Source of the DNA: Paecilomyces variotii | Lineage: Eukaryota | Direction: 5' to 3' (one strand) | Length of the DNA: 64,000 nt | NCBI GenBank assembly: GCA_004022145.1 | Contig: RCNU01000012.1 | Part shown: positions 39,643 through 50,724 of the stretch, piece after piece | How the letters are laid out: each line of letters opens with the position of its first letter | Numbering within the stretch: position 1 is the first letter of the stretch | The notes under the pieces: model-generated | Seen by the model: only the letters and a program-made list of their open reading frames with translations | Databases searched by the model: none | What the model was told of the DNA's origin: nothing | Made by a program: the position numbers and the translations under genes

Positions 39643-41425
39643 ATGGACAAACATATGGGCGTTTCCCCGCCTCAGGCCATGGCCAGCGATGAGGAGAGAG
39701 CAATGCATTCGAACGGAATCTCAGAAGAGACTGACTCGGACACACATTCGATATCCCCAGCCTCGAGTCTTCCACCAATTCTGGAGGGTAAAAGCCCCGA
39801 AGATGCCTTCCCTACGGAGCGGGCTACCTCGATATATGAAGAACCTATTCCGGTGCCTCGATCTAGGCGTCGAGGTCTGTTTGCCCAATTCACTCTCCTG
39901 GCAGAGGTCGAGAATCCCAAGACCTACCCGCGGAGGACCAAGTGGTTCATCACCTTCATTGTGGCCGTGGCGGCCGCAGCAGCACCCATGGGGAGCTCAA
40001 TCTTCTTCCGTAGGTGACCCGGTAGCTATCCTTGAGTCTGTTCGGTGCTGATGACGCTGGAATTTAGCGTCTCTATCTCAGGTAGCGAAAGATCTAAACT
40101 CCACGCCTACTGTGACAAACTTGTCTATCGCCCTGTACATGCTCAGCATGTCTATTTTCCCACTGTGGTGGTCGTCATTTAGTGAGGCACTTGGCCGACG
40201 GACTATATACCTTGTGTCCTTCGTGCTATTCGCGGTATTCAATGTTCTATCGGCGGTTTCGACTTCCATTGCGATGCTCATCGTTTTCCGGATGCTGAGC
40301 GGCGGAGCCTCTGCATCAGTCCAGGCCGTTGGAGCTGGTACGATTGCGGACCTCTGGGAGCCGCGGGAGAGAGGAAGAGCGATGGGCATATTCTATCTTG
40401 GTCCGCTGTGTGGGCCCTTGTTCGCCCCCATCATCGGTGGTGCTCTGGCCCAGCACTGGGGCTGGAGAAGTACGCAATGGTTCTCGGTGATCTATGGAGG
40501 TGTGGCTTTGCTGTTCATCTTCGTCGCTCTCCCGGAGACTCTTGTGTCGCGCAAGACCCCTATCGTAGAAGTGGAACCAACAGTGCCGATGGAGCGACCT
40601 CTCAGTCGGGTATCTTCTCGACAGGTTTTGCACTCGACAACTCGAGTGCTGAAGGCACTGAAGATAGTTATCCTGGATCCTCTCAAGATCATCTTGTACC
40701 TGCGTTTCCCGCCTGTCTTGCTCACGGTGTACTATGCAAGTATCACCTTTGGGTCCTTGTACGTCTTGAACGTCAGTATCGAGGATTCCTTTGGAAAACC
40801 TCCTTACAACTTTTCCACGATCATTGTAGGCTTGCTTTACATTCCGAACTCCCTAGGCTATGTGACCGCAAGTCTATTCGGTGGAAAATGGATGGATAGC
40901 ATTATGCAACGCGAAGCGAGAAAGGCGAACAGATATGACGAAAAGGGCAAGCTTGTCTACCGTCCCGAAGATAGGATGCGCGAGAACGCGCTGCTGGGAG
41001 CTATTATCTATCCCGGTGCTCTTATCTGGTACGGTTGGACTGTCGAGCGGGGTGCCTTCTGGCTGGTCCCGGTGAGTATTCATTCCACCTGTTTATCTCT
41101 GGGAAATCAATGGACTAACGAAATCTAGATGATTGCTAACTTTTTCTTTGGCATTGGCTCAATGCTCATCTTCAGTATGGCAACAACCATGCTGACAGAG
41201 TTTATGCCCAAGAAATCATCTTCCGGGGTCGCGCTGAATAATTTCATGCGTAACATTTTTTCATGCGTTGGCTCCATCGTTGCCGCTCCTATCATTAATG
41301 CCATTGGCAATGGTTGGCTTTTTACAATTCTCGGGTTGGTTGCGATCATCAGTAGTTCATCGCTCCTTTTTATGAGGGTCTTTGGTGCTCGATGGCGACA
41401 GAAGATGGACGGGCACATGAACTGA
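39643..41425 (+). CDS. MFS multidrug transporter, DHA1 family (Qdr3/Dtr1-like)
   Basis: EVENPKTYPRRTKW, SEALGRR, VGAGTIADLWEPRERGRAMG, GPLCGPLFAPIIGG..WGWR and PEDRM; introns ~40010-40067 and ~41072-41128. Confidence 0.92.
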
Positions 41426-42619
41426 TTTTGGGTCTCTCGAGCCCATGCCTGCGTTACTGCGTCAGATAAGGGTTCATGCACTCAGCATACACTGCCACGA
41501 TAATGATGGCGTTTGGATTTCTTTCAATGTGTGCTTTTTTCTCTCCTGCATTTTCCGGCTTTTCCATTAGTACCATCACCCATGAAGTACGTATGTGCAT
41601 CATCACGAGCAGTCACGCAAGCATCGTGGTTTCTTTTGCGGGGTTCACTTCAGGCGCACCAGACGGCTAGGGAATAGATATTCTTCTTTTAGAGGTGCTC
41701 CTCGGCTTTCTTCACAGATGCACTTCCAGTCAAAGGCGGCGCTTCGCTGTAGCTCTCGTTGGGAAGCTGAGGGAAAAGGCACAAACAATTAGCATCTTGC
41801 GTTCATGTGAGCGAGACTAGCTAACCTTTACTGTCAATAACATTAGATCACCAAATGGAGACTATCTGGATTCAATTTTCTGCCCGTAAGTGAGTGGATT
41901 AATGGAAAGAAAGGGATTTTCTCAAGGGCTACCCGCGGACATAACCCAGTCAGCTGAGGGCGGGCGTCTGGCCCCATTCATTGACTACCGGCCTAAAGCT
42001 AGTACGTAGAACTGTAAGACACACCTTATAGAGTCCCACGTTGTAACGGCCTTATTATTTGCCCCTTTTCTCATATGGTCATCTTCTAGTCGTCCATACA
42101 TACTCAGGAGCAACCAATCCGATCTAGAGGTAACCCGTACTGAAGCCACGACATACATATCCACTAGATATCTAGATAGTATTCTTCTCATACTCGTCCC
42201 GTTTGAGGCGTAAGTTCAGGAACTTGCGAATGGCAAGTTCATCTACGCGATATCAGGGGTGTGCAACGGGGCTGCAGTGCGTGGGAGAAAATCGCGCTAT
42301 GGGAAGATGACAGGGACTAGAAACGTTATTTCATGTCGTTTTCAAGTATTCATATTCAAAGTATGCATGGTGTAGATCAGGTAAATATATTTTATTATTA
42401 TATTTATGTTAATTCTCCTATGTTAATTATATCCAATCCGACTCGGTTATCCGACATCGGATACCGTTTTAGTAAATAGTATTCTCAAGCGTGTAGTTGA
42501 TATGATCCTTGAGCTCTGTTTCTTTTTACTTCTTGTCCGGAAAAAGGTAATGCTATAATTACTGTTTTAGGCTGGTGGAACGGGAGGTATGAAGAGGGGT
42601 TATCTGTTCAAGGTAAGGG

Positions 42620-43050
42620 ATGGGTGGTGTCAGGATAGAAAGGAGTGATGGTGGACCAAGCTTTTTTTTGATCATCCGGCCAATTCCTACGCTGTGTGCA
42701 ACAGTAGTGAGAGTTAGCCTTAGTTGCAACTTATTCGTCGTCCAATGTCAGGAGTCTCTTGCACGATGCAAATGGCAATTGGTTCAGACGGCGCCGGAAT
42801 TGTTCCGTAACGAGTCAATCAAAGCATGTGCGGAGAGGGTGCAGAAGATAAGAGCTCATCCCATGGATCTTCCCATAAACGGCAATATATGGCTGATCCA
42901 AGCGTTACGGATGCGTTCTGACAGGACAAGGGACAAGAGGGGTTTATGTAGGAGAATCCCGGTTGAGACTCGGAGAAGGTGCTGATGCGATTATCAAGCT
43001 GACCTCAGCCAGTAATAGACTCACGCAGACATGTAGATCTATCAGCAAGC
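42620..43050 (+). pseudogene. Possible decayed SDR oxidoreductase remnant
   Basis: Fragments ESLAR...APELFRNE...RAHP.DLP and PG*DSEK/GADAIIKLTSA, broken by stops and frameshifts, resemble the C-terminal half of 17beta-HSD-like SDRs. Recognised by eye only. Confidence 0.3.
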
Positions 43051-44222
43051 TCGGTGGTGCCAGCGTCTTGGCCGTTTTGCCTGTCAATCCCTGAACGCCG
43101 GCATAATCTTAAAGTCACATGCTGGGTTCTTTTCCCAAATAACGATCTGGCAGCACTGTCGAAAAGAGGCGGGACCGTACGTGATACATCACCTGTGATG
43201 CCCGACCAAGGAGGCAAAAGGATTACCACAACGAAAAGCATGTAGCCCCTTTTGTCCTTCTGGTTTCGATTTCTTAATTTTGGCCTTCCTTTACTCCCAA
43301 TTGAGACCTGATGTATGTGCCACGTAGAGACGAAGTTCTAATTGATGTGATCAGTCGCCACAATTGGTCTGCAACGTATTGAAACCGGACAACAGAACTG
43401 TGATGGCAAGAGGGACTTTTTTCGGGTATTTGACGGGTCAGAGAAGGTGAAGCATCGAGAACCACCGGAAGTTAATGCAGCAGTTCATCTGATGACAGAG
43501 TGCTCATTCTGTTGCATATCGCCACACCGAATGCATCCATTTGCACACTTGCATCTAGGTCGTCATGCAGTGATGCTCCAATGTGCCCGAATATCATGTG
43601 TACGCTACAAATCCCATCGCGATGGGCTTTGAGACTGGGCTTCCATTGGACTGCCATTTTGGGCTCTTCTCGTCGTCCAATTCCCAAGCCGTTTCACAGA
43701 CGCCTAGAATCTGAGAATAGACAAAGTCTAGACTGATCCATGTTGAGCACAGCCTTGTATACTCATCAGCTCTGGGGACTGGATGTGAACGTGTCTCGAC
43801 AGATGAATAGAGGAGAGAGAAAGAGCCGTATCGAAGCGCCCTCAGACCGCGCTGGCCGTCTGATCTTCGTTTTGCCTCGACTTCACGGCCACTGTGTGGA
43901 ATGCGCCCACGCAGGAACCTACCTCACAACGCCCGAGAACTGGACGGATTGATCGCCTTTGGCTTCACTGTTGTTTCTGCAGGGCAGAGAGTGGCCACAC
44001 CCCTGAAATTCCTGTCGCTGGATCTGCGTCTCATCTAGTAAACGTGAGAGCATTCTCCAGTGCTCACAGAGCGTGAAGCCCACCGCGGGGGAATGGTGTG
44101 TCGTCTGGCAAGTCATCTCTGCGTGTCCGGTACTAGGTAATTAATTGATTGATTGATTGATTATTATTATTACAGTAATGCTGGGACAATCATCGAGGGC
44201 GGCCAATCTGCGGTTGCCAGAA

Positions 44223-46215
44223 CGGTTATATGGGTCGCGAGGTCGCGAGGTGGCGTCTCGCGAGGTCGCGAGGTTTTTGTTACCAGTAGGTTACTGGTAA
44301 ATTATTATTTTATATTAAAATTATACTAATATATACTAATAGAGAATAAAATCTAAAATTTTTAAATCTCGCGGGGTGGTAAGTACAGGTAAATCTTATC
44401 TCGCGGGGCGGGAAGGGGGAAGGGGGGAGTGGAGACGAAAGAGGACGAGGGAAGAATGAAAAGGCTGAAGAGCGAGTGAAAGAGCGTGATGGAGAAAGGA
44501 CGAGGAGACCCACCCCCCGCGAGACGAAGGAAAGAACGGGAGAGCGGGAGGAAAAGGAAGCAAAGACAGGCGAGGAGGGCGACTGAAAGAAAGCGGGAGG
44601 GGACGAAGAAGAGGGAAGATGGGGAAGAAAGAGGAAGAAGAGAGGAGGATAAGAGGGAAGAGGAATAGTAGGGAGGAAGGAGTGATAGTAGGAGGAGTGG
44701 GGACGAAGAAAGAGGGAAGAGAGGAAGGGAGAAGGAAGCATGAAGGGGAAGAGGAAGAGAGGCGCGCGGTGGGGGCGAGAGAGAGAGAGGAGAAAGAGAA
44801 AAGGAGAAGGAGAAGGGGAAAGGGAAAAACGAAGAAGAGAGGAGAATGGAGAGTAAGAGAAGGAAACGGGAAAGAGGAGAAGAGAAAATAAAAATAAGCG
44901 AGAGGAGGACGAAAAGAGGAAAAGAAGGAGAAAGAATAGAGAAAGATGAGGAAGAAAAGGGAAAGAGAGGAAGAGGAGGACAAGGATAAAAGAGGAGAGA
45001 GGAGGAAGGGAGGGAGGGGAAGGAAGGAGGGGGAAAGGGAGTAAGAGAGAGAAAAGAAGAAAAACGGAGAGGGGGGAGAAAGAGGAAAAGAGCGAGAAGG
45101 AAGGACGAAGGAGAGGAAGAAAGGGGAAAAGTATGGAAGAGGGACGAAAAAAGAAAAAGAATGAGAGAAGTGAGGGAGGGAGGTGTGTGGATAAAGAAGA
45201 TTGAGGCGGAAAGAGAGAGAAGGAAAAAGAGGAGAAGGGGGATGAGGGGATAGGAGGAATGGAGAGGAAGAAAGGGGAAATAGAGGAAAGTTTCGAAAAT
45301 AGGAGAAAAGAAGAAAAGTAGGATGTGATTGGAGATAAAGTGAAGAGAGGGGAAAAGGGAGGAAGAGAGGAAAAAGAAGAAAATGATGAGTGGGGGTAAA
45401 ATGAAAGGAGCGAGAAAAAGGACGAATGAGAAGAAAATAAATAGGAGGGACAAAAAAAAGGAAAGTAAGAGACGCGGGGATAATGAATAATAGAATATAT
45501 TTAAATTATGATAGAATTAAGTATTAGATAGTTTAATATGTACTAGGAATACTATTATATGGGTAGATTATAAGATTTAAAGTTTAAATTATATTAATAT
45601 AAATTATAATATATTATTCGTTTTAAATTTAAAATTATAATTATACTTTATATATTTATAATATATATATATAGAAAAAAAGAGAGAATATATTTAATCT
45701 TAAAATTATTATTAATTATAACTTAATATAATTAAATATTATTAGTAAAATACTAATATATTAAATAATTACTAATATATATTAATAAATATTAATATAT
45801 ATTAATAATTTATTATTTAATATTTATTAAAAAATATTAAATATTATTAGTAAATCCAGATTTATTTAGTAGCACTAATAGCCTGTATTTGCTTAATTTT
45901 AATACAGATCTAACAGTTATTTACCTGGTCTCGCGGGGTGGTATAATTGTAATTTATAACTAAACTATTTTAATTCTATTAGTAAATTTAGTAATATCTA
46001 GTATAAAATACAGCAATTACAATCTTACCGCCCCGCGAGATAAGATTTACCTGTACTTACCACCCCGCCAGATTTAAAAATTTTAGATTTTATTCCCTAT
46101 TAATATATATTAATATAATTTTAATATAAAATAGTAATTTACTAGTAATCTACTGGTAACAAAAACCTCGCCACCTCGCGAGACGCCGCCTCGCGACCTC
46201 GCGACCAACCCACCG
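44223..46215. mobile_element. Non-autonomous foldback / long-TIR DNA element, RIP-like AT-rich, 8-bp TSD
   Basis: TGCCAGAA is directly repeated at 44215-44222 and 46216-46223; ends are CGGT...ACCG; clean inverted repeat 44233-44411 vs 46028-46206, extendable much further inward once T>G is allowed; no credible ORF. Confidence 0.88.
44412..45470 (+). repeat. ~1 kb A/G-rich tract that is the T>G (and C>A) rewritten arm of the palindrome
   Basis: Almost no T or C on the + strand; aligns to the reverse complement of 45481-46027 after T>G substitution. Confidence 0.8.
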
Positions 46216-47475
46216 TGCCAGAACATCGCGTCGTCCCGGTCCGCCGCCTCACCCGCTAGTCCCGATGGGGGTTGGCCCAAGCGTTTCCCAAGTCAACCTC
46301 GAGTCTCGTTCTCGAAGCTCTCTGCTCCCTTCTAGTGAAGCTGCCTCCATCGGTTTGCCTTGCAATTCCAGACTTGAGGATGTGTTCAATGCTACAGACA
46401 CTTTCTGAAGCCCAATGCTTGGGTTATCTCGCGCTGTGCCCTGACCGCAGCGTCATCGTTTACTTCGTGGACTCACCGATATAGTTCCCCATCGAGTGGG
46501 GACTTTGATGGATTATCGTGCATCACTTCGCACAATGACGCCCAGCCTCTGGGATCTCAAGTGCTGCGTATCACAGATCACTTTTCCCTGCATTTCTGTG
46601 CCCACTATACTCCCCCGGATACTGTCCTAATTGGCCCTGTGGCCTGAGGCGTTGGGCAGAAACCCCGTGGCATCCGCCGCATGAACGAGCACTCCCTCCG
46701 GGGTCGTGCTCTGTACTTAGCAGCGAAACACATATCTCATGATGCGAGATGCAAGGAATGGCCTACTGCACAGGAATTGATCTTGGAATGATCTCCTATC
46801 TGCTCATTTCTGCCCCTCTCTCAGAGGGGTAGGAATTTATATCCCCGATATCCACTCCGATACAACTTAGCGGGCGGTCTCCACTAATCAACTCTGTGGA
46901 GTATTCTCTACCTAGTACCTAGTGTACCTACTGCTTCTTTGCAGCTTCATAGTTACCAATCCTGTTCAGGCAGCGTTCAGACCTAACTACTGCAGCTTCA
47001 CCTGCAGGCGGAGTCATCACCCTGCTGCTCGTCTCCGCCCGATCTTCCGTACTTGACCGGAACATCCATATGAACCCATCGGATACTGAGACGTGGCCCA
47101 ATGGCATCGATTGCCCCGGCAATTGCTCCATTATGTCATGGCAATGGAAGCTCATTGCAGCATCTCCCTGCTCATCGCACTAGCTAACAACTGCAGGATG
47201 GGTTGCTTTGTGTTTGCGTTCGCTGAAGCCCAGCGGCCCGGGTCAGCGTAACTAGCATGTGCTCCGCTCTCCTCTAGTTTCCTGATATCTGAACGGACGC
47301 CCTGCTGTCGATATCGTCCTCTCCCGGCCCTGTATTTCTGTTTCCTGTTCCCCAGAGGCTCGCTGTGTAACAGCTTGCAGACAATTCTTCCTATCTCATT
47401 GTTCCGATCTGGTTGCCACGCGAAACTTCCGAGATAGCCTGCAGCGTCGTAGAGGCTCCGTCATTCGTCGCGGCA

Positions 47476-50400
47476 ATGGGCAAAGGCTCGAAGAACAAGC
47501 GCAAGAATAAGAACAATAAAACTGTATTGAACATCAACGATCCGCCCACCGCAGACAATACAGCAAACGAGGCCGGCGTTGAAGCAATCGTCTCCGGTGA
47601 AGATGGCGCCCAAACGGTTCCAGTATGCAGAACTTCCAGTGTTCCAGTACCAGACATTCGAGCGTCAATATCAAAGCTTCGATCCTAGAACCCTGCAATT
47701 TTCATATCATCCCATCCTTCATCCAGCTACTGGTCCTCTGACGGCAGAAAATGTTCAGGACAAGGAAAACCTCGAGACGGAAAAGAGGCCCGATGCAGAT
47801 ACCCCTGAGATAGATGGTTCTCCCACCGAGCCTTCCAGTTCAGAGGGTGGCTCTTCCCCTGAATCCAACGGTAAGCCACATATGACTCCTCTTTAGCTAC
47901 AGTTATGATTACGATTGGTGCTGGATCACATAAATATGGTATTAATGCTGGACAGACCCCGATTCCTCCGCGACCGAACCAGAATCACCTTCAGAGATAA
48001 CGACCGCGGAGAGCAATGAAGAAGGGAGTAAGAATGAGGAACCAGTGGTGGAAAATAATGAGCTCCCACAGGAAACAGGTGCTGAGATTGTCCCAGAAGA
48101 CAATGAGTACGGTAGTCGGGATGATGCCTCAGCTCCCTCAGAAAATGAGAATGGAGAGCATGTTAACCCCGCAGAGACATCCGCAGCTCATGAAGTGGAG
48201 ACTTCAGATCACGATGGCGGAGAAGCCGGATCGGATACACACGGCGATAATCCTCCCTGCGAGGGTGAGGGTAAGTATTACTGTGCACCACCCCCTGCTG
48301 GTGATTAACAAATCAATAGAGGACAATTTTCCTGATGTTGACCCATCCGCAGAAGCAGATAAGGTCGCCGTTGAGAAAGAGGAAATCGCAAAACAAGAAG
48401 CCGAAGATGCTCGGGAAGAGACAAATGCGAATTTTGTGGGGGATGACGCTGCTTTTGTCGATGACCTCCCTTCAGAAGACCAGGAACCCGGCCCAGAAAC
48501 AGAACCCCAAGAGTCGCCGGAAGATGACGAAGCCAACGAACAAGAGATCTCCGAAAGCATAGAACCAGACCAGAATGGCTCGTCGCCAGATGCCCCTGCT
48601 GAGGACCCCGTCCCCTCGACCGCTGGAGAGGGAGAAGAGAGTCCAGAGACGCAAGCAGAACCAGAGGAACCCACGCACGAACCTGCAGAGTCCGACGAAG
48701 TTTCTGCACCACAAGAGGCAGAAACGGAGAACCCTTGGAATTCCGAATCCGTTGATGCAGCTGCCGAAGCCGACTTCCTAGAGCAACGTGCAGTGGAAGA
48801 CACCGTGGATAATACGGCAGAAAGCGAGGGGAATGATGATTCTGCCGGCGAAGGTGCAGCATCAGAAGAATCTCCAGCTGAGCCTTCAGAGGACACGGCT
48901 TCGGACCAACAACATGCCGAAGAAACCCCCGATGCTGTTGAAACTGGTCAAGAGGCAGGTGACTGCGACAAAGACTCCCTAGGCGAACCAATGCCTGAGG
49001 AGGACCTTGCGCCGTCTGATGATACTCTTGCAGACGAGGAAGCCGCCGAAGATAGTGCGGAAGATGCAGCGAAAGAGACGCCTCCTGAGGAACAACAGAT
49101 TGACCAAAACACTGCCGAAGTCGCCGGTAATGACGAGACAGCTCTTGATGGAGATTCAACGGAGGAATCTCCTTTTGAAGATGCTTCTGTTGAAGAGCAT
49201 CCGGCCGAGGAGCCTGCCGAGGAACTCGCAGCCAAAGAAGTAGCCGCCGACGAGATTGCTGCTGATGGAGATCTTGCGGATGAGCCTGTTGAACCAGTCG
49301 ACGAGACTCCTGCCGAAGAACCAGTCGCTGAAGAACCTGCCGCTGAAGAACCTGCCGCTGAAGAACCTGCCGCTGAAGAACCTGCCGCTGAAGAACCTGC
49401 CGCTGAAGAACCTGCCGCTGAAGAACCTGCCGCTGAAGAACCTGCCGCTGAAGAACCTGCCGCTGAAGAACCTGCCGCTGAAAAACCTACTTCTGAAGAG
49501 CTACCGGTCGAGGAGACACCAGTTGAGGAGGCACCAGTTGAGGAGGCACCAGCTGCCGTAGAACTACCCGCCCAAGATCACCCTACTGAAGAAGCTCCCG
49601 CACATGAGCCTGCTCCCGAGGAGTCACCAGCGGAACAGCTTACTACTGAGGAGACTCCGGCCGAAGTATCACCAGCGGAGGACCTCCCTGGGGAGATTCT
49701 GCCAGCTGTCGCTGAGGGCGTTGTCACCGAATCATCTGTTGAAGCGCCAGCTGAAACGGAACCAGCAATCCCTAGTCAGAGAAATATTCCAGCTGCTGAA
49801 GATCATACCGACGCCCCTTCTCCCCAGGAGGGCGAAGCGGAAGAAATCGCTGACAACCAGGAAGACCGCGCAGCGGAACAGGACATTGCTGTGGAGGAGT
49901 CGCCCGACGATGGTGCAGCTCCTGGCATCCCCACAGAAGCGGCATTGCCCGAACGCTCTCGGCGGCGTAAGAGACAATCATCAGGTTGGAAGCGCGACTA
50001 TCATCACTCTAAGAGCTCATCGGATGGCCACCGCTCCCAGCTGGAGCGCCAGAAGAGCGAACGGGGCCTTTTCAAGGACCGGTGGGCCATGGCTTTAGAA
50101 GAGGCCAAGAGACAACGTGAGGAGAAGCTCCGAGAAGCCGAACGCCGGAAAAGAGAAGAAAGACTCCGTGCAGAGAAAGAGCAATGTGCAGCAGAACGCG
50201 CGAAACGTGCGGAGAGGGATGAGGCTGCGAGATCAAGACGTCGCTCTTCGGAACACTCGTCGAGCCATGATCGACGTCGAGGAGAGTCGGCGTCAAAATC
50301 AGCACCGAACGCACTATCTGCCCGTGGTATCTTGAAATATATGACCTCCGGAGAGTCGGATACAAATGGTCCTCTTTTAAAACTAAACGCCGCCAAGGCA

Positions 50401-50724
50401 GCACCTCTAGTAACGGAGCCTGCAAGGAGATCTTCAAGCAGCCATGCACGCTCTCATCACAGTCGCTCTCACGATGAGAGACGGTCGAGTGGACGATCTG
50501 GTGCCTCTGGTACTGAAGACAGCGAAAGTGCTCGACGAGAGCAGCGCAGAGCACGACGGAAAGCAGAAGAGGAAGAACAAAAACGAGTAAGGGAGGCTTA
50601 TGGTGCCAACGCAGGAGAGCCCCACCACCGCCGTCACAGACACCATCGGCCGCAGCCATCGCCCCGTGAATCGAGATTTAAGGAAGCCCTTGGTCTTTTC
50701 AAATCTGCAATTACAGCTCACTGA
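47476..50724 (+). CDS. Large acidic low-complexity protein with EEPAA repeats and a basic/coiled-coil C-terminus, function unknown
   Basis: ATG 47476 ([12 protein letters not shown]), introns ~47623-47747 (GTATGC..CAG), ~47871-47955 (GTAAGC..CAG) and ~48271-48320 (GTAAGT..TAG), then a 2.4 kb open exon to TGA 50724. Confidence 0.8.
49330..49479 (+). repeat. Coding minisatellite (GAAGAACCTGCCGCT) x10, encoding EEPAA
   Basis: Ten perfect 15-bp units counted directly, with degenerate units on both sides. Confidence 0.97.

Follow-up and report, generated by a model that had tools for sequence, protein, structure and literature searches.

A kilobase purine-coded copy of one arm in a Paecilomyces variotii foldback element, probably an artefact of sequence read-out

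Repeat-induced point mutation (RIP) makes only C>T and G>A transitions. Strand-specific miscalls by nanopore instruments, a different matter, are said to have been described at telomeres by Tan et al. in 2022. For nanopore reads that span inverted duplicates, the accessible part of one study describes an uplift of the current and failed base calls in 80–100% of the spanning reads; the failure starts at the junction and leaves the second arm low in confidence or garbled, with low phred scores and missed bases, most reads were affected, and none of the base callers put it right (PMC7229812; Spealman, Burrell & Gresham 2020). The available portion of a recent preprint adds that strand-specific, systematic nanopore miscalls of repeats enter assemblies, and that they can be recognised because short reads of the same strain lack them (Carvalho, Kim & Uno 2026, bioRxiv 10.64898/2026.07.13.738322). 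The locus considered here lies in a 64,000-nucleotide (nt) stretch of the fungus Paecilomyces variotii (GenBank assembly GCA_004022145.1, contig RCNU01000012.1), called the window below, and consists of an AT-rich foldback (long-inverted-repeat) element that occupies 1993 nt as assembled (44224–46216) and carries in its interior a polypurine tract at 44412–45470. A preliminary description, made from the letters alone, held that this tract is a copy of the opposite palindrome arm with T rewritten as G and, further in, C as A, that RIP could not have produced it, and that its most likely source was a hairpin-induced artefact of sequencing or consensus. The recoding is borne out quantitatively below. 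The recoding itself, its two steps, the sharp borders and the confinement of indels to the tract together suggest that the tract is very probably an artefact and not genomic sequence. Of the source first proposed, the artefact part is upheld by the step-like borders, the two-stage conversion, the confined indels and the contents of public sequencing runs, whereas causation by a hairpin fares less well, the published nanopore pattern being different from the one seen here.

Decoding of the purine tract

The tract spans 1059 nt, made up of 491 A, 463 G, 59 T and 46 C. It is the sole stretch of at least 88% purine, on a 100-nt scale, in the window, and it adjoins the only blocks there of at least 80% A+T. 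Its left part, the inner left arm of the element (44412–44990, plus strand), is written in a purine code in which T appears as G throughout and C appears as A as well from about 44875. The readable template of this arm is the inner right arm (45471–46023, plus strand), which is intact and has a G+C content of 6–20%; both were delimited by recoded alignment. When 44412–45000 is aligned locally to the reverse complement of 45471–46029, with 50 shuffles as the null, reading T as G gives a score of 640 against 114.5 ± 13.4 (maximum 149) for the shuffles. Plain identity yields 44 (shuffles 18.9 ± 2.1), and the control recodings T>A and A>G yield 45 and 48, near chance. The two short matches between tract and arm that the preliminary description had quoted are both correct.

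The alignment of the arms with a table of substitutions, which the same description had put forward as a check, gives the code letter by letter. In an anchored global alignment of 44412–44990 with the reverse complement of 45471–46059, 213 of the 232 aligned T are written as G, 16 are unchanged, 3 are written as A and none as C. A remains A in 218 of 224 and G remains G in 27 of 30, while the 47 aligned C divide into 28 that stay C, 18 that become A and a single one that becomes G. This alignment contains 46 inserted and 24 deleted bases; the recoded arm measures 579 nt and its partner 589 nt (30-nt anchor included), with no net loss. The cleanest segment, 44551–44850, keeps 126 of 128 A, 13 of 13 C and 13 of 13 G, and turns 127 of 136 T into G. 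Under a one-letter recoding, about 95% of the aligned letters are recoverable. The few unconverted T are spread over contexts such as TTT (6 of 28) and ATA (3 of 51), a difference too weak to discriminate between a k-mer-based and a per-base read-out. The direction of the changes disposes of RIP, as had been argued from the outset: they are transversions (T>G 213, C>A 18, T>C 0), and transitions within the tract account for only 6 of 453 columns.

Farther in, the partner is lost. The palindrome arms can be traced only up to about 44990 on the left and 45471 on the right, leaving 480 nt between them. This central core (44991–45470, plus strand), characterised by its composition and by mirror and recoded-match tests, is purine-coded and has no decodable partner; it contains A and G in about equal numbers and few T or C. 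From this composition, in particular the near equality of A and G, we infer that the core is an AT-rich, non-palindromic sequence in the same purine code. Two other readings of the core were tried and rejected. As a palindrome with both halves recoded, in which A and G would be swapped in the mirror image, the whole core (44986–45470) scores 95 against 66 ± 13. In scans of the core for the centre of such a mirror, z never exceeds 1.9 (H = 220) or 2.4 (H = 120), and no peak stands near the expected centre at about 45228; the best mirror score within 45150–45350 is 75 against a mean of 58 ± 15, the positive control scoring 362. Read as a copy of one or the other arm in recoded form, or of the 3 kb on either flank, the core gives z from −1.0 to 3.5, in a test whose code is so permissive that shuffles already score about 270. 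The orientation test contradicts a weak mirror match about 44918, and we take both this match and those z values for low-complexity noise.

The minus strand of the tract is covered by long open frames at 44362–45453 (363 codons), 44396–44983 (195 codons) and 44310–44741 (143 codons), all of them rich in S, L, F and P. Such frames exist because a pyrimidine strand, nearly devoid of A and G, cannot spell stop codons, and the longest of them, of 363 residues, is without a Pfam match. They could nonetheless mislead gene callers.

Switch points, borders and rival explanations

The onset of conversion is as abrupt as first reported. In the 179 aligned columns of the same arm that precede 44412, T is read as G in 0 of 55; from 44412 up to 44850, G replaces T in 168 of 179 cases, the other 11 being unchanged. 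The switch falls between the T at 44401, the last one intact, and that at 44412, the first one converted, within an 11-nt T-free motif, CGCGGGGCGG, with the CTCGCGGGGCGG motif (44400–44411, plus strand) lying just ahead of the onset. C switches separately. It is intact in 26 of 27 up to 44850, and after 44851 A takes its place in 17 of 19 aligned positions; this switch lies between the last C>C, near 44869, and the first C>A, near 44878, some 460 nt after the T switch. The earlier remark that C, too, becomes A further in is thereby confirmed, 17 of the 18 C>A changes falling after 44851. At the right border, T numbers 1–7 per 40 nt before the CGCGGGG motif at 45473–45479 (plus strand), where four-letter sequence resumes, and 15–19 per 40 nt after it. 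A slight increase of T is visible from about 45180 on (2–7 per 40 nt) before this jump, but the conversion does not fade out at about 45470 as had been stated; the right edge is fairly sharp. Both borders of the tract are located at CGCGGGG motifs. Conversion is a step function, not a gradient, and two thresholds passed at separate times fit two signal channels rather than a single chemistry acting on DNA.

The small indels that had been noted in the tract are confined to it: 28 events occur in its 453 columns (44412–44850) and none in the 179 columns of the adjoining intact stems (Fisher p = 1.2e-4). Mismatches beyond the recoding come to 12 of 453 in the tract (6 transitions) and 9 of 179 in the outer stems (7 transitions). 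The stems thus differ from each other at least as much as the tract does from its partner, and the tract bears no sign of age. Taken together, indels, kept T and other mismatches amount to an "error" of about 10% relative to the recoded partner, a density of small indels and lapses that resembles that of a raw long read.

Sharp borders would also result from a corruption by software after base calling. With bases in the usual two-bit code (A=00, C=01, G=10, T=11), clearing the low bit produces exactly the T>G and C>A changes seen here; alternatively, a neural polisher could have hallucinated on the abnormal pile-up of reads over a palindrome. But over the first 460 nt or so the conversion of T leaves C intact in 26 of 27, there are 16 surviving T among 232, and a bit mask would yield no indels at all where 28 events are found, which makes a fault of this sort very unlikely. 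The same borders bear on dense base modification of one strand, which would lead a single-molecule caller to read T as G (A as C on the other strand). Modification is generally known to cause systematic, strand-specific miscalls in long reads, and the conversion here is on one strand only. Yet the other arm, which has the same sequence, is read normally, the C switch would call for a second modification that begins 460 nt later, and the borders are sharp to about 11 nt; of all the explanations considered we hold this one to be the least probable, and hardly credible.

If the tract were real, a strand-specific process would have turned about 92% of T into G, and then C into A, over 1 kb of one strand of the foldback. 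Such a process would account for a change that is strictly strand-specific and limited to a structure-forming element. Moreover, T>G and C>A are equivalent to A>C and G>T on the other strand, and both are hallmark classes of 8-oxoguanine: incorporation of oxidised dGTP gives A:T>C:G, and templating from oxidised G gives G:C>T:A. Candidate processes would be a massive transversion of the 8-oxoguanine type or an unknown editing enzyme acting on the single strand of an extruded hairpin or cruciform. Against them stand a conversion of about 92%, the step from 0 to 94% within 11 nt and the second step at C, all unlike known hypermutation, which to our knowledge (RIP, deaminases, diversity-generating retroelements) is mosaic and context-dependent. 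Furthermore, the indels are co-localised with the tract, A and G show no extra divergence, and no public run contains words enough for the flanks and the tract together. A real tract, and with it either of these processes, is very unlikely indeed.

The public runs were matched by means of 581 sampled words of 42500–48000. Part of this interval is contained in 19 runs from 8 studies, labelled as food-fermentation and grain metagenomes and as "organism A" (contig sets of 34–71 million letters). By calculation from 31-mers, the fractions are 0.63 for the unique flanks, 0.17 for the intact parts of the element and 0.19–0.20 for the tract; flanks and tract together would require about 0.82, and the whole stretch 1.0. 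The word shares found are 0.73 and 0.72 in two runs (X15, X16), 0.63–0.64 in three (X17–X19), which equals the fraction of the flanks alone, and 0.48–0.58 in the 14 metagenome runs. None of the 19 reaches 0.82. These shares fit absence of the tract and are not proof of it. The strains behind X17–X19 may lack the element altogether (an empty site, as in an insertion polymorphism), or the element may merely be unassembled in their contigs.

Proposed origin of the tract and its host element

If the tract is an artefact of read-out, the true locus would be an AT-rich foldback transposon of about 2 kb, flanked by an 8-bp target duplication, in which two arms of about 750 nt enclose a core of a few hundred nt. 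One or a few single-molecule reads, decoded under a shifted decision rule, would have supplied the core together with the inner three quarters of the left arm. T would have been labelled G first and, about 460 nt later, C would have been labelled A too, with A and G unchanged throughout; from the next G+C-rich motif on, decoding would again have been normal. As a physical cause, the likeliest would be the mislabelling of bright as dim signals within a channel of a fluorescence read-out with two colours and two amplitudes. PacBio Sequel-type chemistry has T and G in one colour, T being the brighter, and C and A in the other, C being the brighter. Alternatively, a nanopore basecaller may have been given a shifted or rescaled current in a near-pure A/T, hairpin-forming stretch. 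Loss of a colour on two-channel Illumina instruments, a fault that in their newer blue/green scheme would produce T>G and C>A as well, was considered as the main cause and rejected: short reads are nearly free of indels, and a coherent tract of 1 kb could not arise from them. The survival of the tract in the assembly may likewise be accounted for: at about 45% of its positions this backbone would disagree with correct reads, in a locus that is moreover an inverted repeat, so that the polishing reads probably could not align and the raw-like stretch was left in place. That the tract stems from read error, the platform in question and the failed polishing are all points that we infer from its form.

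Several observations weigh against an origin in misread signal. A random single-read event would fall wholly inside the sole 2 kb foldback of the window with a calculated chance of about 1.5%, so the low G+C content of the element (6–12% in its inner arm), or its structure, must contribute. The decoding was left un-reset by a G+C-rich island within the tract (for example 44509–44525). Literature searches for the two-colour amplitude dye scheme found nothing to the point, and a search for polypurine miscalls at inverted repeats returned no pertinent description. The word shares do not reveal which words matched, no run is known to be from the source strain, and differences between strains also lower such shares. 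Lastly, unlike the failure at inverted duplicates as set out in the accessible part of that report (PMC7229812), the tract takes in the core together with the inner three quarters of an arm and is not shortened (579 vs. 589 nt).

An artefactual tract would mean that a kilobase of mis-decoded raw read can outlast polishing in an otherwise clean contig. One might search for others by their signature, that of a tract of A and G only, or of C and T only, that matches nearby sequence once T is read as G and C as A. Tracts of this kind yield false open reading frames (ORFs), make DNA look polypurine or triplex-forming when it is not, and seem to interrupt palindromes. A real tract, conversely, would represent a transversion hypermutation or editing system of a new kind, strand-specific and without known counterpart.

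What is real at the locus is a non-autonomous foldback transposon of an ordinary kind. The element (44224–46216) is defined by terminal GGTCGCGAGG repeats, 183-nt outer stems and the recoded inner arms, and its inverted-repeat ends are abutted on the left (44216–44223) and on the right (46217–46224) by the 8-bp direct repeat GCCAGAAC, both copies in plus orientation, as a target-site duplication. Exact matches to GCCAGAAC number 4 in the window, where 2.2 are expected, and two of them are those at the element ends. The GGTCGCGAGG terminal repeats are confined to the two ends of the element; GGTCGCGAGGTCGCGAGG, allowing up to 3 mismatches, has 4 matches (0.05 expected), only at these two ends; and CTCGCGGGGYGG occurs 6 times, always within the element (0.46 expected). 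The locus therefore has both the terminal inverted repeats and the flanking target-site duplication that mark a foldback or terminal-inverted-repeat DNA transposon. No coding capacity was seen in the element. The left outer stem (44233–44415, plus strand) is intact over 183 nt and is 95% complementary to the right outer stem (46024–46206, minus strand), likewise intact, with which it pairs.

Several of the 9 differences between the outer stems (44233–44411 vs. 46028–46206) lie inside CpG-containing motifs, and the G+C-rich outer ends of the element seem, as far as the letters tell, to be decaying faster than its AT-rich interior. Each arm also has a local hairpin, formed by 45929–45954 and 46015–46040 on the right and mirrored at about 44400–44425 and 44497–44524 on the left. 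It has 26-nt stems that are 88% complementary, a 60-nt loop, and CTCGCGGGGYGG motifs as clamps; in the left arm, the onset of conversion falls within its 5′ stem. The motif block of the element beside the onset has 0 matches in metagenome contigs, either as an exact 24-mer or as a gapped degenerate pattern.

The element is intergenic, situated between a major-facilitator transporter gene at 40112–41425 (Pfam MFS_1, E = 5.7e-35) and an acidic, repeat-rich ORF of 902 codons at 48016–50724 (plus strand), which contains about 12 tandem units of the AEEPA type. The sole Pfam match of the latter is a sub-threshold one to Extensin_1 (36.7 bits vs. a cut-off of 105), and the several long ORFs on the strand opposite it are probably artefacts of composition. 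About 45 nt upstream of the insertion site is a compound microsatellite, (GATT)n followed by (ATT)n, at 44139–44172.

Comparison with known systems

As a host, the element compares well with foldback and other long-terminal-inverted-repeat transposons: it has long inverted arms, short G+C-rich subterminal repeats and an 8-bp direct repeat, is without an ORF and is intergenic. Foldback and long-terminal-inverted-repeat transposons with 8-bp target duplications are hAT- or P-like, and the element may belong with them; a literature search for a matching fungal foldback family found nothing useful.

RIP shares with the process behind the tract a substrate and an outcome of a general sort, in that it acts on duplicated fungal DNA and yields AT-rich, strongly skewed tracts. 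The purine tract differs from its products in having T>G and C>A transversions, a higher G+C content and near-complete conversion. The differences between the outer stems, 7 of 9 of them transitions, are compatible with RIP or with ordinary decay. Mutagenesis of the kind performed by diversity-generating retroelements, in which one template-repeat base is exchanged randomly in the variable repeat and a reverse transcriptase lies close by, is also a poor match: the replacement here is deterministic (T>G) and not random, and no reverse-transcriptase-like frame is present among the 15 ORFs of 41000–49500, 4 of which were scanned against Pfam.

The failure of nanopore reads at inverted duplicates, as far as the accessible text of that report describes it, is alike in that one arm is read well and the other miscalled, and the 1059 nt affected are of the same order as the good arm; the present tract is unlike it in being a clean one-letter recoding, about 95% of which is recoverable (PMC7229812). 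Followed on the minus strand, from 45470 to 44412, the tract begins at the border of the right arm with the core and not at the second arm (about 44990), and it stops 187 nt before the end of the arm. With the core included, no shortening and about 95% of the information kept, the tract agrees poorly with the published inverted-duplicate pattern. The repeat miscalls described in the available portion of the preprint come closer in one respect, since there too one strand is rewritten in a regular manner and the change survives in the final assembly; the cases given are short tandem repeats (AAGAC read as AAAC), unlike the complex, non-tandem sequence of 1 kb found here (bioRxiv 10.64898/2026.07.13.738322).

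Confusion of amplitudes in two-colour single-molecule real-time (SMRT) sequencing leaves the link to a foldback element unexplained. We know of no published case of such within-colour confusion over a kilobase. With the pairing of dyes given above, it predicts T>G together with C>A, A and G left untouched, failure at separate times, and the indels of raw reads; and, given this pairing, the changes in the tract run from the bright to the dim label, as T>G in 213 of 232 aligned T and, beyond 44851, as C>A in 17 of 19 C, the dim labels A and G being nearly all unchanged.

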